DNA of 21,976 nt from IMG/VR virus record IMGVR_UViG_3300022401_000130; one strand, given 5' to 3'. The stretch is from a virus. Each line of letters opens with the position of its first letter. Position 1 is the first letter of the stretch. Below are positions 3,312 through 21,665 of the stretch, in pieces. The notes under the pieces are model-generated. The model saw nothing but the letters and a program-made list of their open reading frames with translations. It had not been told where the DNA came from and ran no database searches. The translations under genes were made by a program, and so were the position numbers.

Positions 3312-3344
3312 ATAAGCTGGGAGAGGGTCTGATTCCCAGCTTAT
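3312..3344. terminator. 11-bp perfect inverted repeat downstream of the capsid operon (terminator/stabiliser-like)
   Basis: ATAAGCTGGGA-11 nt-TCCCAGCTTAT; on the minus strand it is followed by a T-rich stretch (TCTATTTCT) and lies 150 bp after the MCP-B stop. Confidence 0.5.
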
Positions 3345-3498: not shown

Positions 3499-4431
3499 CT
3501 ATGCTCTGAATTGTCCTTTGATTATTCTATTAGGTGCGTTCATTAACACACCGACGGAGGAAAGTATGAATAGTTTTGTATACATAGGCAATTCGTCACG
3601 TATGTCTTTGCGCATGAATTCGATTAATGGATAGAAATCGTACATTTCACCGTCAGGTCCTAAAGGTGCAACGGTTGTTCCTGTAGTCCTGGAGTATAAC
3701 AATTTCATTCCTGGGTTAATGTAGTCCATACCAATATATGTTTTGTCACCCATCTCAGAACCACCATCACAAACTGCAGTTCCAAGGATATCTATATTAT
3801 CAACGCCGTAATAGCTTTTGATTAATTCTACCGGTTCAACTTGTCTGTTACTTGAGAATATGTCAGATTTTAATGTAGTAAGAGATTTGTAACTAACAGC
3901 CATACTGTTTAAGTTAGCATAACTTCCGGCACCTTCTTTGAATTTTTCCTGTGCTTTAAGGATGGTCATACCGGTATCGTCACCAGATTCAAAGTCATAG
4001 GTGGTTACTTTGGATGAATTCATTATCATATCAATAGCTGCCTTTTCAATACTTCTACCAATAAGGATACCTACATCCTGTAACATGTCATTAACACTTA
4101 TTAAATTGGAATCAAGCATTTGAGCAGAAACGTTTAATACTCCACCGATAGTGTCAATGGAGACGGTTTCGCTGATTGGTTTTCTGACGTTTAATTCCTG
4201 TAATGTTGCGCCAGGTGCAATGTCTTTTGCCTCTCCAAGCACGCCTGCCTGAATAGCTTCCTCGATATTGACTCTTTGTGACATGTAGGTATAGTATTGA
4301 GAATTCTCTTGTATTTCTTGCTTTGGAAGTAATCTGGTGAATTTCATCCATTTGGCTGAAGTGTCAGCTACAATCTGTGCCATTACTTCATTTTGTACTT
4401 TAGCATCATTTCCTTTTGTTAACATTAACAT
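3499..4431 (-). CDS. Major capsid protein paralogue B (HK97 fold); likely start at ATG 4425 (MLTKGN)
   Basis: 310 aa; E-loop/spine-helix pattern (DIAPGATLQELNVRKPISETVSIDTIGGVLNVS...DMLQDVGILIGRSIE) typical of HK97-fold shells; roughly half identical by eye to 4442-5380; GGTGA RBS. Confidence 0.8.
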   Translation of the reverse strand: MLMLTKGNDAKVQNEVMAQIVADTSAKWMKFTRLLPKQEIQENSQYYTYMSQRVNIEEAIQAGVLGEAKDIAPGATLQELNVRKPISETVSIDTIGGVLNVSAQMLDSNLISVNDMLQDVGILIGRSIEKAAIDMIMNSSKVTTYDFESGDDTGMTILKAQEKFKEGAGSYANLNSMAVSYKSLTTLKSDIFSSNRQVEPVELIKSYYGVDNIDILGTAVCDGGSEMGDKTYIGMDYINPGMKLLYSRTTGTTVAPLGPDGEMYDFYPLIEFMRKDIRDELPMYTKLFILSSVGVLMNAPNRIIKGQFRA

Positions 4432-4441
4432 TCACCTCTAA

Positions 4442-5380
4442 TTATGGTCTGCAGGTACCTCTTAAAGCAAGTCCTGGTTTATTTAATAATATTCCTACTT
4501 TTGATTGTATAAATAATTTGGTATATTGAGGTAACTCATCGTAAATGTCTTTACGCATGATTTCAATGATAGGATAGAAGTCTGCAATGTTTTCATCACT
4601 TGTAATTGGTGCAACAGTAGTTCCGGATGATTTGGAGTACAATACTGTTAACGGTGCATTACGAAGATCAAAACCGATATAGTCCTTATCGCCTATTAAT
4701 GATCCACCGTCAGCTTGAGTTGTTCCGAGAAGGTCAATGTTGTCAATGCCGTAGTATTCTTTAATGTCTTCTACTGGCTGTACCATTTTGTTGGATGCGT
4801 AAGCTAATTGTTTAACATAGCTTAATGTCTTGTATGATTCGGCCATTATTGTTAGGTCTGCACCTGCACCGGCGTTGCCTTTGAATGCTTCCTGTGCTTT
4901 GATGACAAATTTACCGAAGGCATCCATGGTATCGTCAGTTTCACTGGTATTGTAAACAGGAACGTTTGGAGAGCTTGTTATAGTATCGTAAATGTTGTAT
5001 TCAATACGATTAGCAATAACGGTAGCTACATCACCTAATAAATCCTCAAATGAAACAATATCTGAGTCAAATACATCCTTATTAACATTTAAGACTCCAC
5101 CAACAGTATCAATACTAATAGTGTCTGTTACTGGTTTGCGGATGTTAAGTTCCTGAAGTGATGCGCCTGGTGCAATGTCTTTGGCCTCACCAAGGAGACC
5201 TTTTTTAATAGCTTCGTCAAGATTAATGTTCTGTCTGAAATAAGTATAGTAATCTGAGTTCTCTTTAATTTCTTGTTTAGGAAACAATCTAGCTAACTTT
5301 AATCTCTTTGCGGTTTCATCAGTAATAGTTTGAGCTATTACCTCGTTTTGAACTTTAGTATTATTTCCTTTTGTAATCAT
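4442..5380 (-). CDS. Major capsid protein paralogue A (HK97 fold)
   Basis: 312 aa; same HK97-like pattern (DIAPGASLQELNIRKPVTDTISIDTVGGVLNVN...DLLGDVATVIANRIE); directly follows a decoration-like gene; GGTGA RBS. Confidence 0.8.
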   Translation of the reverse strand: MITKGNNTKVQNEVIAQTITDETAKRLKLARLFPKQEIKENSDYYTYFRQNINLDEAIKKGLLGEAKDIAPGASLQELNIRKPVTDTISIDTVGGVLNVNKDVFDSDIVSFEDLLGDVATVIANRIEYNIYDTITSSPNVPVYNTSETDDTMDAFGKFVIKAQEAFKGNAGAGADLTIMAESYKTLSYVKQLAYASNKMVQPVEDIKEYYGIDNIDLLGTTQADGGSLIGDKDYIGFDLRNAPLTVLYSKSSGTTVAPITSDENIADFYPIIEIMRKDIYDELPQYTKLFIQSKVGILLNKPGLALRGTCRP

Positions 5381-5390
5381 TCATTATCAC

Positions 5391-5873
5391 CTATTCTGTT
5401 ATGTCATAAGGTCTGAATACTTCAACGTAATTGTAATCATCAGAACTATCAACTGGATGCATTGCAATATACTCACCGTCATTAGATTTAATAGCTCCAG
5501 TGCTTGATAAAGCTATACGGTCATTAACGGCAATGTTTGATAATCCACTAGCTAATTTTAATCTGAATAAATGTCCTAATACAAGAATAGCTGTTTTCCT
5601 TTTACCGCCAGTCATAGTGACCGGATCGTTAACAGCAATACCTAAAATGATTTCACCTTCAGCTGCAGTGTATTTTTTAACTGTTGGTTTTCCAATATCT
5701 GAGTTTGCAGATAAAGTTACAGCATCATCCACTTTGATTTTATCTCCTGCGTATTCATATCCAGGAGTTTCTCCAGTTGGAGTAGTAACAGTGGTAGGTG
5801 TAATCTCACCTTCATCTAATAAGAAAGTTGTGACTTCTTTTCTTTCTTCAAGTAAAATAATAGAATCTGCCAT
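5391..5873 (-). CDS. Capsid decoration/cement protein (beta-tulip/DUF2190-like), paralogue 1
   Basis: 160 aa, immediately upstream of the MCP (canonical position); IGIAVND..., VLG.LFRLKL beta-rich pattern; GGAGG RBS. Confidence 0.7.
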   Translation of the reverse strand: MADSIILLEERKEVTTFLLDEGEITPTTVTTPTGETPGYEYAGDKIKVDDAVTLSANSDIGKPTVKKYTAAEGEIILGIAVNDPVTMTGGKRKTAILVLGHLFRLKLASGLSNIAVNDRIALSSTGAIKSNDGEYIAMHPVDSSDDYNYVEVFRPYDITE

Positions 5874-6202: not shown

Positions 6203-6916
6203 TCATTTATCCAAATCTTCTTTTAATATCTCATACATTACTTTCTTTATGTCTTTAGTGGAACGTAAAACAAATTGAGGGTTTGCAATTTTAATAACTC
6301 TTCCTTTATCATTATAAACAAAATTATTTCTATCTTGTCTATTACAAGAATCACACTGCGGAATTATATTTCCTAATTCTAATGATTTATTAGGATCCTT
6401 ATGGCCTTTTTGTAATTGTGTTGTAATATTTGGATAATGAATGTTTGGTTCACCTTCAATAGAACCACAAGTAGCACATCTATAATTATATTGCTTTTTA
6501 ATTGATTCCCATTCATCTCCAGTTAAGTTATCTAATCTTCTTAAATTAGTAAAGTTAGGATAATATTTTTCGACACTGATTAATGCATACTCTCCAGGTT
6601 TCACATTGTATTCAGCACATTCCCTATCATGTCTTTGACCACTTATGATATACCAGCCTTTCTGTTGTCCTAAATGTCTTGCTTGTTGGACATCATTAGG
6701 TCTTTCACCATATTGGCCTAAGAAATTAGTTAAATCTTCTTTTGACACAGGTTTTTGAAAGTTAAGATATAAATAAATTAATACTAATGCATCTTTTGTA
6801 TAGTTGTCTCCTGTTTTTAGTCTAGGAAATTTAACTCCATATTTTTCTAAATATTTCGCATGTTTTTCTTTTAATTCTGTATAACACTCCATTAATTTTG
6901 AATCACTCACATACAT
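6203..6916 (-). CDS. HNH (His-Me finger) endonuclease, probable restriction endonuclease
   Basis: 237 aa; RCATCG...QKGHKDP...QCDSCN zinc-binding HNH motif preceded by a helical N-terminal domain; adjacent to a C5 methyltransferase. Confidence 0.8.
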   Translation of the reverse strand: MYVSDSKLMECYTELKEKHAKYLEKYGVKFPRLKTGDNYTKDALVLIYLYLNFQKPVSKEDLTNFLGQYGERPNDVQQARHLGQQKGWYIISGQRHDRECAEYNVKPGEYALISVEKYYPNFTNLRRLDNLTGDEWESIKKQYNYRCATCGSIEGEPNIHYPNITTQLQKGHKDPNKSLELGNIIPQCDSCNRQDRNNFVYNDKGRVIKIANPQFVLRSTKDIKKVMYEILKEDLDK

Positions 6917-7251: not shown

Positions 7252-8415
7252 TTAATTCAAATTATCTAATGATCTTCTAAATTCTGAAGCAATAGCTTTT
7301 GCTAGTAATGGAGGTACTGCATTACCTACTTGTTTATATTGTTGACTACTTGACCCTTTAAATTCCACATAATCTGGTATGGATTGTAATCTGCAAGCTT
7401 CTCTTACACTCATGACTCTATTGCTTGTTGGATGTAAAAATCTGCCTGGAGCACTAGCACAACCACAATTACCAGTAATTGTATCGGCAGGTTTATTTTC
7501 ATCTAATTTACCATATATATTTGGATAACCTCTTTTAAGTTTTAAATCATCAGGTAAGTCTCCATGATTACCTCCTTGAGGAATATTTTTAATTCTTTCA
7601 ATAACTAATTCAGAATGATTAGGTGCTTTATGATTAAATAATTTATCAGAATTTTTTCTACAATATTCTTGATATTCATTTTGAGGAGGAAGAGTATATT
7701 TTGTGGCTGATTGTTTACATTCAATTATTGGTAAATCAGATAAAGCATCTTTAACAGTTAAATAATGTTTTGCATCACCTGAATGAGCTAATAATGAATT
7801 TTTGTCATGATGAGTAGGAGTAGGGAATTTAAAATTATAATCATATTCTTTTCTAATACCTACAAAGAATATCCTTTTTCTTAATTGTGGAACACCATAA
7901 TCTGCAGCTAACAATACTTTTGATTGAACATTATAACCAATGTCATTAAAGATATCAATAAGCTCATCTTTAATTAATTCATCTTTACCGTTTTTCATAG
8001 ATGCTAATCCTGAAACATTTTCCATCAAAAACATTTTAGGTTTAATTGAATCAACAATATCTGCATAAATTCTAACAAGATTGTTTCTTGGATCATCAAT
8101 CATTCGATTTCCAACAGTACTAAATCCTTGACATGGTGGCCCACCTATGACAACATCAATTTCATTTGGATTAATGTTATTCTCTTTTAAAAGTGTGATA
8201 ACATCAGTTTCATTTAAATCTTCATTAAATCCAATTGCATTGGGATGTGAATTAGTATATGTCTCTAAAAATTTAGGTTCAATTTCAAATCCTGCTAAAA
8301 TATTGAAATCTTCCATCTCAAAACCTAAACTTAATCCACCAGCCCCACAAAACAAATCTATACAGTTATATTTATTTTCATTAGCACACATTTCAAAATC
8401 ATCCTTATTAACCAT
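7252..8415 (-). CDS. dcm: DNA (cytosine-5)-methyltransferase
   Basis: Motif I DLFCGAGG, catalytic GGPPCQGFS, ENV, QLRKRIFFVG, and C-terminal SVREACRLQS and QVGNAVPP motifs all present. Confidence 0.95.
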   Translation of the reverse strand: MVNKDDFEMCANENKYNCIDLFCGAGGLSLGFEMEDFNILAGFEIEPKFLETYTNSHPNAIGFNEDLNETDVITLLKENNINPNEIDVVIGGPPCQGFSTVGNRMIDDPRNNLVRIYADIVDSIKPKMFLMENVSGLASMKNGKDELIKDELIDIFNDIGYNVQSKVLLAADYGVPQLRKRIFFVGIRKEYDYNFKFPTPTHHDKNSLLAHSGDAKHYLTVKDALSDLPIIECKQSATKYTLPPQNEYQEYCRKNSDKLFNHKAPNHSELVIERIKNIPQGGNHGDLPDDLKLKRGYPNIYGKLDENKPADTITGNCGCASAPGRFLHPTSNRVMSVREACRLQSIPDYVEFKGSSSQQYKQVGNAVPPLLAKAIASEFRRSLDNLN

Positions 8416-13548: not shown

Positions 13549-14187
13549 TTATTCCTCCCATACATAAAGTTCGCCGTTAATTAAGTAAGCATCTCCCACT
13601 TGAGGATTTGGAACGTTCTCTTCCAATTCTTCCAGACTATCATATGAGCCTTTTATTATTGTTGATATTCCGGCAGGGCCAGTATCACCAGTATCTCCTT
13701 TCTCTCCTTTAGCACCGCCACCTGCTAATTTAAAACAGTTAATGTAATTGTATTCATCAGAATCTTCCACAGGATGTAATGCCAAGTATTCACCTGATGA
13801 ATCTTTAACGGCTCCGTTTTCACCTAGCTTGATTTTATCGGCCGGTGCAATATCTTTAACACCACTGGCCAGTTTAAGTCTGAATAGCTGGCCTAACACT
13901 AACACACTGGCTTTTCTTTGGCCGTTATCCATTACTGTCGGGTCATTAACGATTATGCCTATTGGTATTTCATCATTATCTCCAGTGTATTTTTTAACCA
14001 TTTCTTTTCCGATTTCGGATTTGTCTGAAATGGTTACTGTATCTTCAGGATATAATTTGTCAGTGTAATCATAACCGATGCTTTGGCCTGTTTGTGTAAC
14101 TACGTCTTTTGAGGTTACATCTCCATCATCGAGTAAAAATGTTGTGACTTCTTTTCTTTGTTCAAGTAAAACTATTTGGTCTTGCAT
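13549..14187 (-). CDS. Capsid decoration paralogue 2 fused to a short collagen tract and half of a collagen-associated repeat
   Basis: First ~155 aa align closely with 5391-5873 (LLE.RKEVTTFLLD.G, VLG.LFRLKLASG, YLALHPVEDSDEYNY); then [16 protein letters not shown] and IIKGSYDSLEEL...GDAYLINGELYVWEE. Confidence 0.85.
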   Translation of the reverse strand: MQDQIVLLEQRKEVTTFLLDDGDVTSKDVVTQTGQSIGYDYTDKLYPEDTVTISDKSEIGKEMVKKYTGDNDEIPIGIIVNDPTVMDNGQRKASVLVLGQLFRLKLASGVKDIAPADKIKLGENGAVKDSSGEYLALHPVEDSDEYNYINCFKLAGGGAKGEKGDTGDTGPAGISTIIKGSYDSLEELEENVPNPQVGDAYLINGELYVWEE

Positions 14188-14786
14188 TAAACACTCACCT
14201 CATATATGTGATTGCCTTTTACATCTGGATTGCATTTGATTTCCATTCCGTGCTTTCTGGCTTCTGTGCAGAAATATAAGTCTTCTGATAGTATTGTGTC
14301 ATTATCATAGATTACGTATTTGAAATATGGGTATGGCATTTTCTTAAAGACATTAACATTAACGAGGCTGATTCCAAGTCCTCCTCCTTTAACGTCAATG
14401 GGATTGTTAAGGTTCCATAATGTTTTTCCATAGATCATGTTTTTGTCAGTGTAATCTTTTCCAAAATCATAGATGACGGTTTGATCTGTTTTTGTTCTTT
14501 TCTTGTAATACCAGCCTAAAGCAATATCTGTTTCACACTTTAACAGATTGTTTATAGTTTGTCTAGGCACACTAACGTCTGAATCTACCATTAACACATA
14601 GTCAAAGTCGTATTTGATTGCTAGCTTTGCTATTTCGTTTCGTGCACGTGCGCAGTCATAGCCTTTAACATAATCAAAATATAGTAGATAATCGTTAGGA
14701 TTTTTCATGCCGTAAATACTTTTAAAGCATTCCGGTTTGATGTTTTCGAATGTTGGAACGGCAATTAGGATTTTACCTTTCATCAT
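14187..14786 (-). CDS. GT-A fold (GT2-like) glycosyltransferase; likely start ATG 14786/14783
   Basis: KILIAVPT N-terminus, ARARNE, DxD motif VDSD, GGGLG and SEDLYFC motifs; GGAGG RBS; stop overlaps the next start (TAATG). Confidence 0.85.
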   Translation of the reverse strand: MMKGKILIAVPTFENIKPECFKSIYGMKNPNDYLLYFDYVKGYDCARARNEIAKLAIKYDFDYVLMVDSDVSVPRQTINNLLKCETDIALGWYYKKRTKTDQTVIYDFGKDYTDKNMIYGKTLWNLNNPIDVKGGGLGISLVNVNVFKKMPYPYFKYVIYDNDTILSEDLYFCTEARKHGMEIKCNPDVKGNHIYEVSV

Positions 14787-15054
14787 TGCCCTCCAGCTTT
14801 TCGATTCTCTCTTCCAGTTCATCCAAGTTTATCTTGTCTTGTTTTTCACATGTATATTCATAAATGTCAATTACTGCTACAATAACAATAGCTACTGTTA
14901 ATGGTAACAGTCCTTCGATTAAAGCATACTTTGTTGCGTTGGTCATTATGATGTTGATAGCTATTGCTGTTAAAACTGCACTGGAGATTGTTTTGGTAAA
15001 GTTACAAATGACTATTTTATTTTTTAGTTTGTTCATGATAACAATATCCTCCAA
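14773..15054 (-). CDS. Small two-TM membrane protein with C-terminal coiled coil (holin-like?); likely start ATG 15036
   Basis: Two hydrophobic segments (TISSAVLTAIAINIIM; ALIEGLLPLTVAIVIVAVI) and a charged LDELEERIEKLE tail. Confidence 0.6.
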   Translation of the reverse strand: MEDIVIMNKLKNKIVICNFTKTISSAVLTAIAINIIMTNATKYALIEGLLPLTVAIVIVAVIDIYEYTCEKQDKINLDELEERIEKLEGNDER

Positions 15055-16492: not shown

Positions 16493-17683
16493 TTAAAACA
16501 CCCAATCCCAATTATGGTTAATTATTTTATCTGGAATGTGAAGTCCAGTATCAGTCATGTCCTCATCGTCTGCATCCCACAATAACCTACTGCCTTTGTA
16601 AGCTTTAGGATATTCATGACTTCCTTTATACAATCTAATACCTGTTTTAGAATCCCTTTGCGTTACTGTTATTGCGGGAATAGAATTAGCTGCAAGTAAT
16701 GGTGACGGGAATATTAACATCCATTTCAGGTCAATGTAGTTGTATTCTTCAAAAGCGGTTGTTAAAAACCATCCTGGAGCAACTTCAATTTCATGGTAAT
16801 TGTTGTCATAAATTTTAGTTGGATTGTTTCTGTCGAATCCCTCCAGGTAATCTGAGTCACTGCTGAACCCGTTTGAGACTCTCCCATGGAAATGGTATTG
16901 TTTATAATTTCCCTCCTCATCACTGCCTGAAGCATATGCATCATTGGAATTAACCTGCACTAATGTTTTAGTTCCGTTAAACATTAAGTAAGATTTTTCA
17001 CCGTCCCAATTCAAGGATGTGACTTTTATATCTTCCTGATATGTTGTGAGATTATAGTCAGTCTGCATCATGTATGTTCCAGTTGTTGTTCCATGATATG
17101 TTGCATTATCATTAACATCCACACAACCGGAAATCCGTTTAAATCTTGCAACAGTAACACGATTGTTTGATAGACTTCCACCAGAGGCGAATGTTGTAAA
17201 TAATGATGTTGGTGAACTTCCATCCATACTTGGAACAAATCTAGCTCTTAAAAATCTGCCCCCATCCGTTGAATCATTGTTGATACTTAAACCTGAGTAT
17301 GTCATAAAAAACTGGGAGTATGTGTCAGAATTTGCATCGAACATTAACACCTCACCACCAGTGGATAAAGTGCTGCTGAAGATGGTTGAGGTATCATAAA
17401 CATCAAGAAATAGCTTTGTTGTTTGGGAGATCTTACCGACCGGAACCCTGACCAGGATAGCTGCCGGTTGAGATCCATAACTTGGAATGTATAATACTGG
17501 ACAGTTGCTTCCATCTTTGGTTTTGATCTTTAAGTTTTTCAAATCACTTCTGAAAAGATTGGAATAAGAACTGTTGGCCAGATTATCCAAGAAGATGTAA
17601 TCATAGTTGGATGAATAGCTACCGCTTCTTTGCGTGTAATTGTTTATTACAATATTGATTTGTAATTCCGCTTGCAATGTCAT
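16493..17683 (-). CDS. DUF2341-like domain protein with beta-rich C-terminus (putative virion adhesin)
   Basis: FRSDLKNLKIKTKDG..CPVLYI......AAILVRVP.....TTKLFLDV resembles the DUF2341 pattern; S/T/N/D/Y-rich remainder. Confidence 0.55.
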   Translation of the reverse strand: MTLQAELQINIVINNYTQRSGSYSSNYDYIFLDNLANSSYSNLFRSDLKNLKIKTKDGSNCPVLYIPSYGSQPAAILVRVPVGKISQTTKLFLDVYDTSTIFSSTLSTGGEVLMFDANSDTYSQFFMTYSGLSINNDSTDGGRFLRARFVPSMDGSSPTSLFTTFASGGSLSNNRVTVARFKRISGCVDVNDNATYHGTTTGTYMMQTDYNLTTYQEDIKVTSLNWDGEKSYLMFNGTKTLVQVNSNDAYASGSDEEGNYKQYHFHGRVSNGFSSDSDYLEGFDRNNPTKIYDNNYHEIEVAPGWFLTTAFEEYNYIDLKWMLIFPSPLLAANSIPAITVTQRDSKTGIRLYKGSHEYPKAYKGSRLLWDADDEDMTDTGLHIPDKIINHNWDWVF

Positions 17684-17684
17684 G

Positions 17685-17714
17685 ATTAATAATTTATTAT
17701 GTATTTTATATAAA
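17685..17714 (-). promoter_or_regulatory. Conserved structural-gene promoter copy 3 (probably leaderless mRNA)
   Basis: TTTATATAA AATAC ATAATAAA TTATTAAT then CATG; ATG about 23 nt from the TATA box, no RBS. Confidence 0.7.
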
Positions 17715-17736
17715 TCATATAATAATTATAGTAATA

Positions 17737-18410
17737 TTGACATTAACATTAACGATTGCATACTCAGATGTTGAACCCCTCCGCACTTTGATATATATGC
17801 AAGGGTTGAGATTAAATCAACATTAACAACAGTGCCCGTTAATGTCAATAACAATTATGGAAAACCTAATGTTAACAATAACTATTGATTTAAATTAACA
17901 TTAACATTAACGATTTGATATTTGAATTTTGGATGTGAATTAACGTTAACGACTGCGATTTAGGATTTAAAAGTTATTTCCCCCTGCACTGCGATATATA
18001 TGCAAGGGTTGAAAAAGAAACAACATTAACGATAGCGAATGTTAATGTGAAAACCATTGCCAGAAATTAAAGCTTTGAGATATTCATTGCTTTAAATTAA
18101 CATTAACATTAACGATTACAATAGCTGAAGTTGAAACCGGATTAACATTAACAGTGACCATTTGTTAATTGAAACTTGCTTTTGAAAAGAAGTTGATGTA
18201 TATGCATAGTTGAAATAGATATTGATTAGTAATACCCTTGCCGTTAATGTAATACTTACTTCATTAAAATTATACTTGTTGATTTACATTTGTTTTAATT
18301 AACGATAACATAAAGAATTATGATAGTAATATCTTGTTCGACATGTCATTATCACAATAACATTACAATCAGCCTTTTGAAATTTGAATTTTGTTTTACA
18401 TTAACATTAC
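17737..18410. repeat. Degenerate ~200-bp tandem repeat built from AACATT iterons and a GATATATATGCAAGGGTTGA box
   Basis: TTTAAATTAACATTAACATTAACGATT identical at 17889 and 18091 (202 bp apart); GATATATATGCAAGGGTTGA identical at 17790 and 17993 (203 bp apart); further ACATTAAC/GTTAATGT copies in both orientations. Confidence 0.9.
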
Positions 18411-18464
18411 TGTTAAGGATTTGCCCAGACCAGAACAACCTGACGGCACCCACGTTTTAAGCGA

Positions 18465-18558
18465 GCCAATTCGCCCCACCATAACCACGCCGACCCGAGG
18501 CCGACCAACGGGAGGCCGAAGTGGGAGGCGTGGTATAGGTGGGGTGAATAGAATTGGC
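18465..18558 (+). ncRNA. Candidate structured RNA/ssDNA: long GC-rich interrupted hairpin
   Basis: TTCGCCCCACC/GGTGGGGTGAA (11 bp, one G-T) and ACCACGCC/GGCGTGGT (8 bp) nested, GCCAATT/AATTGGC outside, internal GAGGCCGA direct repeat. No known family recognised. Confidence 0.4.
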
Positions 18559-18576
18559 GAGCATATACTATAGGGA

Positions 18577-19160
18577 GGAACCGACCCTTGCCGGTCGGTT
18601 CCGTATGGTTACTTATGAATAAAAAGAGTTTACATTGAAATACAACCATTATATGCAGTCCGGCCTTTAGGTCGGACTGGATGCCTTGAGCGTAAGCGAA
18701 AGGCCAATACTATAGGTCTAGCAATAATAGTTTTGTCAAGGTGCAGGAACAGGGGCTTGTCCCCTGTTCCGTAGTTATGGATTTGGAATAGCTTATTTTG
18801 TCAAAGTTAAAGGAACCGACCCTCGCCGGTCGGTTCCGCTGAGGTAAAACATGGACAAGCATGATCAAATTTTTTTAGTAGCAAACATTAGCATTATGTT
18901 CCGTCCGAGCGTAAGCGAGGACTGGACGCCTTGAGCGATAGCGAAAGGCCATACTATAGACAGAGCAATAATAGCTTTATAGGAGTCGAGGAATAGGGGC
19001 TTGCCCCTATTCCGAGTTTATGGATTTGGAATTATTGATTATATCAAATTTAAGAACCGACCCTTGCCGGTCGGTTCGAGGTTTATGAAATTTGCAGTTT
19101 AACTTACATCGGGCATTGGCAGTTGTGGGTAATTAAAGGGGGGCTTGTCCCCCCTTAATT
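18577..19160. repeat. ~240-bp tandem repeat of GC-rich hairpin cassettes
   Basis: GAACCGACC-CT(T/C)GCC-GGTCGGTTC at 18578, 18813, 19054; GCCTT-GAGCG(TA/AT)AGCGA-AAGGC at 18683, 18928; GGAA(C/T)AGGGG-CTTG(T)-CCCCT(G/A)TTCC at 18746, 18990 with a compensatory pair; related GGGGGG-CTTGT-CCCCCC at 19138. Confidence 0.9.
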
Positions 19161-19329
19161 AGGCATTAAGGGTTTCAATGCACGCCCGAACCCCACAAGA
19201 CGAAATATAAAATTTTTTAGAGGAAGTGAAAACATGTTCAAAAACACTTCCCCCGACACCTAATCAAAGAGTGATTCAATGAAAAGTCGTAGCTCAGGTG
19301 GAAAAGTAACAAAAAATACACCGTCATAG

Positions 19330-20307
19330 CTAAATTCTAGTTCTATTGAATCCCATATCCTTTAATATCTTATTATATTCCTCACGAGTTGTAAAAGAAG
19401 GTGAATCTTCATCTCCAGTACTTCCAGTGTCGCCAGTGTCTCCAACATCACCAGAGTTTCCGGGATTCCTACCACCCGGTGTGGAACCGTCTTTACTAGC
19501 TTCAATTTTAATTCTTCTCTCAGCCAGTTTCTCCATTAGCTCCATATCAACGTCACCGGACAATAGCTTATCAATTATTTCTTTATCCTGAGCATTCTCA
19601 TTATAGTTAAAGTTGTACTTGGCCTCGTACTCTTTAATCTTCCTTTCATTCTCAGCTTTTCTAAGTTCAGATAATTCCTTTAAGATATCATCTTTACTTT
19701 CAATGAAGTCCTTATTTTCTTCAATATCTTTTTTAATTTCTTCATATCTTTCAGATTCTTCTTTTAGAGTTTTAATCTCTTCCTGAAGTTTTCCGATTTC
19801 CGCATCCTTGCCTTGCAGTTTCTCCAATAGTAAGGTAGTAGCTACATTAGCTTCTTTACTTGGAGGTTGAGGTTGTGGCTGCGGTTGAGGTGCCGGATTA
19901 CCTGGTTCGCCAGTGGCACCGGTATCTCCAGTAATATCAGAATTCAACAGGGTAATTTTTCTAGGGCTTTTGGTTACGCCAACATCTATTAGGCTCATAG
20001 TATCAATTCCAAATGAATCTCCGTTATCTTTTAATAAGACATCTATTTTAGGGGATAAACCTTTTCCTTCCATATCCAGTTCATCAGGAACTTCAAGGAA
20101 TAGTTTTCCTTCCTCGTATTCTATATTGTTTCCGATGCCAACGTAGATATTGTCATGTTCTGAAGTTAAAGGAATTCCTCCACGATAGTTTTCAGCTATT
20201 AGTTTTAGATCATCTTCAGTCCATTCAACAGGTTTATCAAGTTTTTCGTCCAGGTCAGAATAGTCGTATGATCCAACTTCAAAAAGTTCATGCCTCATTA
20301 TTATCAC
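19330..20307 (-). CDS. Capsid maturation protease-scaffold fusion (Mu gpI-like); likely start ATG 20298
   Basis: N-terminal WTEDDL....Y....PLTSEH...G....L...GLSP...L.DVGVTKSP pattern like Mu-type prohead proteases, then a PQ-rich linker and acidic coiled coil; directly after the portal. Confidence 0.7.
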   Translation of the reverse strand: MIIMRHELFEVGSYDYSDLDEKLDKPVEWTEDDLKLIAENYRGGIPLTSEHDNIYVGIGNNIEYEEGKLFLEVPDELDMEGKGLSPKIDVLLKDNGDSFGIDTMSLIDVGVTKSPRKITLLNSDITGDTGATGEPGNPAPQPQPQPQPPSKEANVATTLLLEKLQGKDAEIGKLQEEIKTLKEESERYEEIKKDIEENKDFIESKDDILKELSELRKAENERKIKEYEAKYNFNYNENAQDKEIIDKLLSGDVDMELMEKLAERRIKIEASKDGSTPGGRNPGNSGDVGDTGDTGSTGDEDSPSFTTREEYNKILKDMGFNRTRI

Positions 20308-20310
20308 ATC

Positions 20311-20342
20311 TATTATTTACTTTATTACTTTATTTATATAAA
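20311..20342 (-). promoter_or_regulatory. Conserved structural-gene promoter copy 4
   Basis: TTTATATAA ATAAA GTAATAAA GTAAATAAT between portal and scaffold genes. Confidence 0.7.
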
Positions 20343-20348
20343 TATATA

Positions 20349-21665
20349 TTATATTTCAACTCCACTGTCAGTTAAAATCCTTTCACCGACCGGTTGCTCC
20401 TCTTCAAAGTTACTTAAATAGTTCTTATAGATTTCATCACCCTCAGAGGACAATTCCATAATATATCTTAATACATCATCACGAGAATAACTGAAGTAAA
20501 CATCTAAAGTTTCTTTAACACCCATTAACTCCAATTGCCTCTTTAATAATTCATTGCAATACTTTAACACCCACTTCTGGTCATTAGCAACATTAACAAT
20601 AAACCCAGTAATAGCTGAATCGTTAATGTACTCAGCAACATTCTGATTGGATTTCTCATTACCTGCCTGTGACTGCGGTGTCACGAAAGTCCTTAAAATA
20701 TTATTCCTGAAGATTTCCGTTTGCCTTGTATAGTCAGATTGATAATTGTTACCCCCAAGTATTTTAGATTCGATTCCTGGAGGTACAATAGCTACATTAC
20801 TTCCGGCCGTGGTTCCGTAATCAGCATATAGGTTTTCCTTTGCAGTGGATGAAAGTTCTGTAATTATAGGCTGACCGTTACTGTCCAGTGAAGGTTTAAC
20901 CTCAATAATATTATCCTTATTAATACGCTCCACCTGATTCCTTTCAAGATTGCACTTATGATAAATATCATCCAAGCAGTTCAGGATAATGCTTTGGGCT
21001 TCTGAGTAGATTTCATTGTACATGAAGTTAATAACCTCATCCGGTTCATACTTGACCGTTAATGTGCCTTCCTCAATACTAACGAAATTATTGAAGTCTT
21101 CAGGTGAACCGTTAACAATATCCTTTGGCATTTCATGAAGGTATAGCTGCACTTCATTATCATCATTAAACTCTTTCTTTAATCCGTAACCGTGAGCGCC
21201 GATTTCAAGAAATATAGGTTTAATATATTTACCAATACTTTTATCCCATCTCTCTACAGGTTTAATTAATCCCTCACCGTCTACCATTCCGCCCTGAAGG
21301 ATGTTCTTTGCAACTTGCGAAATATCAATCATCCTGGCCCAAAGTATTAAAGTCAATTTCTGTTCAGCAGATAACTTCTCTTCCTTATCAACCAGTACTA
21401 TATTAACATTAGCTTTATCAATTCTATTTTTCAATACTCCTGCAGTGTAACCGTCAAGTTTAACAGCATACCTTGCGTTAGCTATAGTTTTATTTATTAC
21501 AGGGGGAAGTGCATCAGGAAGGTCAAGACCGGTATTGATCCCGTCAGTACGTGGTTGTCTTTCATCCTCACCCCAATAGCTGCGCTTAGTATTGTACTGT
21601 TCCACACGGTTATTCAGCAATCTGGTTTTTATAAAATCAGTAACGCCCATATTATCCATTTCCAA
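20349..21665 (-). CDS. Portal protein; likely start ATG 21650 (MGVTDF)
   Basis: About 435 aa; portal-like succession (GGMVDGEGLI, YEPDEVINF, AIVPPGIESKIL, ILRTFVTPQSQAG..SN, NELLKRQLEL..K...VYF); upstream of the protease/scaffold. Confidence 0.75.
   Translation of the reverse strand: MEMDNMGVTDFIKTRLLNNRVEQYNTKRSYWGEDERQPRTDGINTGLDLPDALPPVINKTIANARYAVKLDGYTAGVLKNRIDKANVNIVLVDKEEKLSAEQKLTLILWARMIDISQVAKNILQGGMVDGEGLIKPVERWDKSIGKYIKPIFLEIGAHGYGLKKEFNDDNEVQLYLHEMPKDIVNGSPEDFNNFVSIEEGTLTVKYEPDEVINFMYNEIYSEAQSIILNCLDDIYHKCNLERNQVERINKDNIIEVKPSLDSNGQPIITELSSTAKENLYADYGTTAGSNVAIVPPGIESKILGGNNYQSDYTRQTEIFRNNILRTFVTPQSQAGNEKSNQNVAEYINDSAITGFIVNVANDQKWVLKYCNELLKRQLELMGVKETLDVYFSYSRDDVLRYIMELSSEGDEIYKNYLSNFEEEQPVGERILTDSGVEI

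Follow-up and report, generated by a model that had tools for sequence, protein, structure and literature searches.

Almost all HK97-type viruses build both the hexamers and the pentamers of their capsids from one conformation-switching protein. Phage T4, a myovirus of about 145 kbp with a prolate T=13 head, has two paralogous HK97-fold shell proteins, gp23 forming the hexamers and gp24 the vertex pentamers (PMC13185644). The mycobacteriophage Jabs, a siphovirus, has adjacent genes for MCPh (ORF72) and MCPp (ORF73), and cryo-electron microscopy shows that the upstream product forms 80 hexons and the downstream product 11 pentons (bioRxiv 10.64898/2026.07.24.740622). Here we analyse a 21,976-nt stretch of viral DNA (IMG/VR record IMGVR_UViG_3300022401_000130; hereafter the window, to which all positions refer unless another locus is named), which carries two adjacent genes for HK97-fold major capsid proteins (MCPs), MCP-A and MCP-B, and whose virus probably has a capsid of two subunits.

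The authors of the 2026 preprint on Jabs describe its strategy as unprecedented among icosahedral phages; they report that it is the spine helix, axial domain and C-terminus that set MCPh and MCPp apart, and that contacts between capsomers are made through the N-arm, the E-loop and the P-domain (bioRxiv 10.64898/2026.07.24.740622). Jabs resembles the window in having two adjacent HK97-fold capsid genes. The Jabs proteins are 18% identical and differ in length (594 versus 257 aa), whereas MCP-A and MCP-B are 55% identical and equal in size. Furthermore, the Jabs hexon protein has a cleaved N-terminal domain and the capsid is T=9, disulfide-linked and without a cement protein, whereas the window pair has an archaeal host, cement-like genes alongside and an origin independent of Jabs. 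The cement-like proteins and a displaced head operon are further features of the window.

A different route to a two-component shell is taken by MSTV1 (Methanobrevibacter smithii tailed virus 1, 'Usuviridae'), a temperate, tailed virus with an HK97-like MCP, in which a programmed -1 frameshift on the one MCP gene adds an immunoglobulin-like domain and so gives a second capsid species (PMC11375127). MSTV1 did not turn up when the phage collection was searched for MCP homologues. It has been argued in a review that small genomes economise with one coat gene (PMC13185644), and by this argument two capsid genes in a virus of about 34 kb are atypical. As far as we searched, experiments have established what a second HK97 shell paralogue does in T4 and Jabs only; most literature matches for 'two major capsid proteins' concern two subunits of one protein, and Jabs is the real precedent. 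No other two-MCP system in an archaeal virus, or in a genome of about 34 kb, came up in this search. The view of the first-pass annotation, made by a model from the letters alone, that dedicated second shell proteins are exceptions needs updating: the Jabs preprint adds a case, and the pair itself had already been annotated as two major head proteins in the GenBank record BK063679.1.

Results

Two paralogous capsid genes in one probable operon

MCP-A and MCP-B align end to end with a single 4-residue gap and are identical at 172 of 311 positions (BLASTP, E 1e-126), which bears out the first-pass description of adjacent, collinear genes of 312 and about 308 aa that are roughly half identical (Table 1). 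The open reading frame (ORF) of MCP-B extends to 4431, which would give 310 aa from the first ATG. The second ATG at 4425 is the likely start, because the GAGGTGA motif abuts the first ATG and sits 6 nt before the second, and because several related loci match only from residue 3 onwards. The GGTGA ribosome-binding motifs that had been noticed ahead of both genes can be read as the Shine-Dalgarno (SD)-like sequences GAGGTGA (B) and AGGTGAT (A), the latter overlapping the stop codon of the gene for a 160-aa protein upstream. An SD-like motif ahead of B is present in 33 of 33 related loci and the GGTGA core ahead of A in 32, and the spacing from the A stop to the B start is 9-17 nt across these loci. 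The order in the window is 160-aa gene, A, B, and since the intergenic gaps are only 10-16 nt we infer that the three genes are co-transcribed. An inverted repeat about 160 nt beyond the MCP-B stop is a possible end of this operon; it is absent from the consensus scan list because that scan accepts loops of 3-8 nt only.

AlphaFold2 models of both proteins were made from family alignments. MCP-A gave a predicted local distance difference test score (pLDDT) of 83.6 and a predicted template modelling score (pTM) of 0.82, and MCP-B gave 84.2 and 0.79. Foldseek searches of the PDB returned 399 matches at E<=0.001 for the MCP-A model, led by PhiTE, NF5 and HK97 (best E 6.5e-12), and 405 at the same threshold for MCP-B, topped by HK97 gp5 (1ohg_A, E 6.9e-13). 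The matches listed for A and B are all capsid or encapsulin shells with a probability of 1.00, and include the capsid of the archaeal virus HFTV1. The N-arm, E-loop, spine helix, P-domain and A-domain of HK97 are present at full length in both models. MCP-B also matches PF25209 (Phage_capsid_4) with 31.6 bits, above the Pfam gathering cut-off of 27, and 6 of 21 members of the capsid family match this model; MCP-A has no Pfam match of its own. Sequence searches of the PDB (phmmer with B, and the family profile) gave no matches, and hence the fold was assigned from AlphaFold2 and Foldseek. The predicted structures confirm A and B as HK97-fold capsid proteins of the Caudoviricetes class, in agreement with the fold that had been proposed for both. 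Neither protein has an N-terminal delta domain, and no scaffolding protein was recognisable with Pfam or in the AlphaFold2 models.

Collinearity with BK063679.1 (NC_133304.1) extends across 61% of the window, where 81.5% of the nucleotides are identical. This third-party annotation record describes Caudoviricetes sp. vir323 (34,179 bp, circular, host Methanobacteriales), which belongs to the same virus group as the window but is a different species-level genome. The counterparts of MCP-A and MCP-B are vir323_00024 (93% identical) and vir323_00025 (96%), both of which are annotated as 'major head protein, HK97-like fold' in GenBank and follow the orthologue of the 160-aa gene. The MCP pair is thus already in public annotation, and the new contribution lies in the evolutionary evidence that both copies were kept, not in finding the genes. 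The vir323 annotation also lists a portal, a prohead protease, tail and tail-fibre proteins, a DNA methyltransferase, TerL and a pseudomurein endopeptidase. Through this collinearity, and through more distant relatives, the pair stands in the context of a tailed virus with portal, maturation protease and TerL.

An encapsulin, including the two-component Family 2B, or a satellite was ruled out, as the genome has portal, protease, TerL and tail-fibre genes; no cargo-type gene adjoins the MCP pair, and the encapsulin matches in Foldseek arise because the fold is shared. We found no HK97-type genes in the window besides A and B. Nor was another capsid gene, or a decayed original, found next to the protease: six-frame profile searches of 17600-19400 and tblastn of the whole window were negative.

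Both copies are retained under strong constraint

A scan of species-representative genomes found 45 loci, almost all in metagenome-assembled genomes (MAGs) of rumen or gut Methanobrevibacter. Together with the collinearity to vir323, this supports the archaeal host that the first-pass annotation had proposed, and the element is, on these genomic grounds, a temperate tailed virus or provirus of rumen Methanobrevibacter. B follows A wherever the contig continues, and B without an adjacent A is seen only at contig ends. When 314 genomes of the family were searched in six frames, 47 gave matches, of which 44 are among the 103 species genomes of one genus. Full-length matches to the B query comprised B-type copies (80-100% identical) and adjacent A-type copies (about 50-57%), with none between; a few short end fragments were 61-68% identical to B. 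Scans of IMG/VR with B and with P0124, the MCP of a single-copy relative, returned one contig only. Many genomes hold several related proviruses, for example four in G001 (C4, C8, C22 and C37) and a pair at 0.416 Mb and 1.79 Mb of G173:C1, which is a closed chromosome; the single-contig chromosome G169 also carries the provirus. Co-resident proviruses can come from both subclades of the group (B about 97% and about 85% identical).

Both genes are intact in all 33 complete pairs, with invariant lengths of 939 nt (A) and 927 nt (B). Pairwise Nei-Gojobori ratios of nonsynonymous to synonymous substitution (dN/dS) are about 0.04 for A and 0.03-0.036 for B, and 0.03-0.05 overall, at a median dS above 1; dN between the two subclades is 0.10 for A and for B alike. 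The first-pass annotation had taken the divergence of the copies to mean long retention of both, and the intact pairs, together with saturated synonymous divergence between the copies (see below), agree with this. It had also suggested dN/dS across relatives as a check, which places both genes under strong purifying selection, and had named loss or decay of one copy in close relatives as evidence to the contrary. We looked for such cases and found neither copy missing and damage rare. In L042 both A and B are damaged, and L041 and L040 are damaged in at least two genes, one of them the cement or fibre gene; in all three this points to decaying proviruses or poor contigs. The maintenance of both copies under strong constraint over a long divergence speaks for both being needed, and against redundancy or a decaying duplicate.

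An old, lineage-specific duplication

The closest single-copy MCP, P0124, is 45-47% identical to A and B; P0129, P0142, P0145 and P0148 also come from relatives with one MCP each and are about 31-36% identical. All five distant relatives examined have a single MCP, and four of the five show the canonical order of head genes. The fullest of their contigs read TerL (Pfam Terminase_6N/3), a portal-sized gene, a gene of about 260 aa, a protease-sized gene, a cement-like gene and the MCP. These single-MCP relatives (the L047, L049, L053, L054 and P0145 contigs) thus have an MCP of the same family, at 31-47% identity, the same cement-like gene directly upstream of it and a portal-protease-cement-MCP module. 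Their MCP lies beside the protease, whereas in the window lineage the MCP is doubled and the cement-MCP block lies about 14 kb away.

In a maximum-likelihood tree A and B form sister clades (support 100/100 each, and 92/69 for their union), with P0124 as the nearest outgroup. The stems of the A and B clades are 0.31 and 0.37 substitutions per site long, and the branches within the crowns at most about 0.07. The single-MCP outgroups indicate that the duplication is old and specific to this lineage, and that it started from a single ancestral capsid gene.

Synonymous differences between A and B are saturated: the proportion of synonymous differences (pS) is 0.73-0.83 overall and does not fall below 0.53 in any 50-codon window, and identical nucleotides form runs of 14 at the longest. 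Gene conversion as the source of the high N-terminal identity was ruled out by these pS values and short identical runs; saturation over the whole length means that the identity of the N-terminal third reflects constraint on the protein. When fixed differences were polarised with the outgroups, the P0124 state was found in A at 26 positions and in B at 22, and at 28 both copies depart from it. This symmetry rules out that one copy is ancestral and the other fast-evolving, and shows that both have changed since the duplication, neither being simply the conserved original.

The copies differ most in three regions

Across 33 orthologues of each copy, 146 columns hold the same residue throughout, and another 77 are invariant within A and within B but differ between the two. 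The differences are unevenly spread over the HK97 elements (Table 1), the boundaries of which were set by the order of secondary-structure elements in the models and not by superposition. The three regions in which A and B have diverged most (spine helix, axial domain and C-terminus) are those that differ between the hexon and penton proteins of Jabs, and this favours a hexamer/pentamer division. The elements that make contacts between capsomers are the best conserved between A and B, as would be expected if both share one lattice. MCP-A has a lineage-specific insertion of four residues (MDAF, residues 152-155) where the axial domain begins; B and the near outgroups lack this insertion.

Possible architectures of the shell

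Based on these data we propose, with a probability of roughly 0.45, a specialisation like that of T4 gp23/gp24 or of Jabs, with one protein in the hexamers and the other in the vertex pentamers. An old tandem duplication of a single ancestral HK97-fold capsid gene would have been followed by specialisation according to position, such that the hexamers of one icosahedral capsid would be built from one copy and its eleven vertex pentamers from the other. We infer that both proteins would then be in the virion, that capsomers would be homomeric and that the two kinds would be split between hexamers and pentamers. With the pairs of T4 and Jabs the locus shares two adjacent paralogous HK97-fold genes, and here both are kept by selection across the lineage. 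The division is ranked first partly because the literature read here gives a second HK97 shell protein in tailed viruses no role other than that of a dedicated penton paralogue. The T4 genes for gp23 and gp24 are neighbours with the vertex gene downstream, and by the gene order in T4 and Jabs MCP-B would be the vertex protein.

Several observations weigh against such a division. The SD-like motif of B pairs with the anti-SD at a mean of -11.35 kcal/mol compared with -9.2 kcal/mol for A, and is the stronger of the two in 30 of 32 loci, as calculated with a generic anti-SD sequence taken from general knowledge rather than with the host 16S. An equal or stronger SD ahead of B, together with the 9-17 nt spacing, gives no sign of the output of about 1:6.5 that the pentamers and hexamers of a T=7 shell would require. 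A and B are also equal in size and have diverged symmetrically from their ancestor, whereas the Jabs penton protein is much smaller and more reduced. Finally, A alone is broken with B intact in L022/G179 and in G171:C59 only, and the reverse was found in no locus. In the first (L022 8001-8936, equivalent to G179:C22) A has two Tyr-to-stop codons while B and the cement gene are intact, and in the second (G171:C59:99665-100673) A carries a TAG plus fragmentation; these are two cases in MAG consensus sequences, numbers too small to interpret.

Symmetry between the copies is what obligate mixed capsomers would show, with A and B at defined, alternating or paired places in the hexamers (for example A3B3) and pentamers of one protein, for which A and B would be needed in similar amounts, as in two-component encapsulins. 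The size, the divergence from the ancestor and the constraint are all symmetric, and the conserved strong SD-like motifs on both genes, B at least matching A, fit similar output with tight coupling. In addition, the diverged spine helix and axial domain include surfaces that make contacts within capsomers in Jabs and could have co-evolved as an A-B interface. Homomeric capsomers predict the same pattern of divergence, however, SD strength is a weak proxy for output, and no tailed virus with heteromeric HK97 hexamers was found in the literature searched; we regard mixed capsomers as rather unlikely.

It is quite improbable that A and B each build a capsid of their own, with different sizes or surfaces or as a back-up for escape from defence, so that every particle is homomeric. 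Both are complete, full-length HK97 folds with no element missing, several related proviruses per genome make competition between co-residents plausible, and capsid-sensing defences are known in bacteria. Redundant copies should nevertheless be lost often, whereas every complete pair is intact with a very low dN/dS at dS above 1. The conservation of the E-loop, P-domain and N-arm between A and B also speaks for one lattice, and the two genes share an operon as well as a single cement gene, portal and protease. We give equally little credence to one copy being a non-shell or minor structural derivative, such as a portal-vertex or inner-shell protein or a chaperone that departs, which would keep the fold for templating only. 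An HK97-fold assembly partner is conceivable given that neither a scaffold nor a delta domain was recognised, but a coiled-coil-like segment at the C-terminus of the protease could supply the scaffold, all HK97 elements are full length in both copies with their lattice-contact regions conserved, and we found no precedent.

Cement-like paralogues

The first gene of the capsid operon encodes the 160-aa protein, for which a homologue in L053 matches PF23982 (XM1_gp53_minor_capsid) with 27.2 bits at a cut-off of 27 and PF22758 with 25.7 bits. Its feature neighbours in the Atlas carry Phage_cement families, which is a lead only. Homologues of the gene lie directly upstream of the single MCP in relatives, and the vir323 orthologue is named 'preneck appendage protein' in GenBank. 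Taken as leads, these matches suggest that the 160-aa protein may belong to the phage cement/decoration clan.

A paralogue of 212 aa is encoded in the tail-fibre region. Its residues 1-153 are 56% identical to the 160-aa protein (BLASTP 86/154, E 4e-62), and residues 136-211 match tail-fibre PHROGs. Each of the two copies is 40-43% identical to the cement protein of the outgroup, so the cement duplication would be of about the same depth as that of the MCP (55% between copies, 45-47% to the outgroup). A third protein of 258 aa, with a more distant cement-like segment, is the counterpart of the gene after the MCP in L047 (L047:3344-4102, E 2e-5). Speculatively, capsid and cement genes that duplicated together would be in keeping with two types of lattice site, one of them bearing a head fibre. 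An unlikely extension of this idea has heteromeric hexamers with A and B in comparable amounts, the 160-aa and 212-aa cements each occupying distinct sites defined by A and B and so placing the head fibres. Such patterning within capsomers, if true, has not been described for tailed viruses.

Genome context of the capsid operon

The head module of the window is scrambled, with the cement-MCP-MCP operon (3499-5873) lying about 14 kb from the portal and protease genes (19330-21665) and fibre genes, a C5 methyltransferase and an HNH protein in between. The methyltransferase, the HNH protein and the collagen-like tail fibres are supported by Pfam or PHROGs. The portal and protease counterparts gave no Pfam or PDB sequence match, and their identities are therefore taken from GenBank annotation and synteny. 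The 325-aa protease counterpart shares 27-28% identity with the gene that separates portal and cement in L049, and has a C-terminal coiled-coil-like segment, seen from a weak Pfam match; a portal position next to the terminase is found in other relatives.

The HNH endonuclease-like gene and the C5 cytosine methyltransferase (6203-6916 and 7252-8415) lie directly upstream of the capsid operon. In vir323 a homing endonuclease lies just downstream of the MCP pair (L046 20764-21702), which the window is without. Mobile nucleases are thus seen on both sides of the rearranged capsid block.

Within the structural/fibre region, a 211-aa protein (14187-14822) matches phrog_1574 (E 3e-21) and, weakly, the glycosyltransferase families Anp1 and phrog_34859, which hints at glycosylation of virion or host surface components. 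A 396-aa protein next to a repeat region (16493-17683) had no Pfam or PHROG match and resembles DUF2341/Laminin-G (concanavalin-like lectin) in language-model (Atlas) features only; it may be a carbohydrate-binding structural protein. The repeat region itself (17684-19329) lies between this gene and the protease gene and comprises 1.6 kb with no ORF longer than 78 aa. It has at least seven copies of an iteron-like ATTAACATTAACATTAACGATT motif at 17.7-18.4 kb and three tandem units of about 243 nt at 18.57-19.08 kb, each with a GC-rich palindrome GGAACCGACCCTYGCCGGTCGGTTCC. No Rfam match and no capsid or cement remnant was found in this region, which may be a replication origin or a structured-RNA array. 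Single-MCP relatives hold their cement and MCP genes at this place.

Table 1. Features of the window, with the identity of MCP-A and MCP-B in each HK97 element
Feature	Position	Strand	Remarks
MCP-A	4442..5380	minus	312 aa; upstream HK97-fold major capsid paralogue; ORF translation, AlphaFold2 and Foldseek
MCP-B	3499..4425	minus	308 aa from second ATG; downstream HK97-fold major capsid paralogue
SD-like GAGGTGA before MCP-B	4432..4438	minus	read from sequence; 3 nt after MCP-A TAA stop (4444-4442)
SD-like AGGTGAT before MCP-A	5386..5392	minus	read from sequence; 5 nt ahead of ATG
Inverted repeat AGCTGGGA / TCCCAGCT	3315..3341	minus	read from sequence; 8 bp, 11-nt loop, then T-rich run; putative operon end
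160-aa cement/decoration-like protein	5391..5873	minus	first gene of capsid operon; weak Pfam lead via homologue
212-aa cement-like paralogue	13549..14187	minus	collagen/tail-fibre-like C-terminal tail; in tail-fibre region
258-aa protein, distant cement-like segment	15715..16491	minus	tblastn/BLASTP E 2e-8 to 160-aa protein
325-aa prohead protease counterpart	19330..20307	minus	vir323 annotation and synteny; about 14 kb from capsid operon
438-aa portal counterpart	20349..21665	minus	vir323 annotation; 28% identical to L049 gene in portal position
E-loop			A versus B identity 77%
C-terminal P-domain strands			A versus B identity 75%
N-arm			A versus B identity 65%
Early axial domain (residues 137-175)			A versus B identity 41%, with indel
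C-terminal 12 residues			A versus B identity 33%
Spine helix			A versus B identity 31%

Significance

If a hexamer/pentamer division is true of this pair, it would be an independent case of a two-protein shell, found in an archaeal virus whose genome is small, at about 34 kb. At 55% identity, with copies of equal size and single-copy outgroups, the duplication appears young enough for the specialising substitutions to be traced, which would make it a good system for studying how a quasi-equivalent capsid protein becomes position-specific. Furthermore, the virus group is common, being present in 44 of 103 species genomes of one genus and often in multiple copies, and hence bears on the ecology of methane producers in the rumen.

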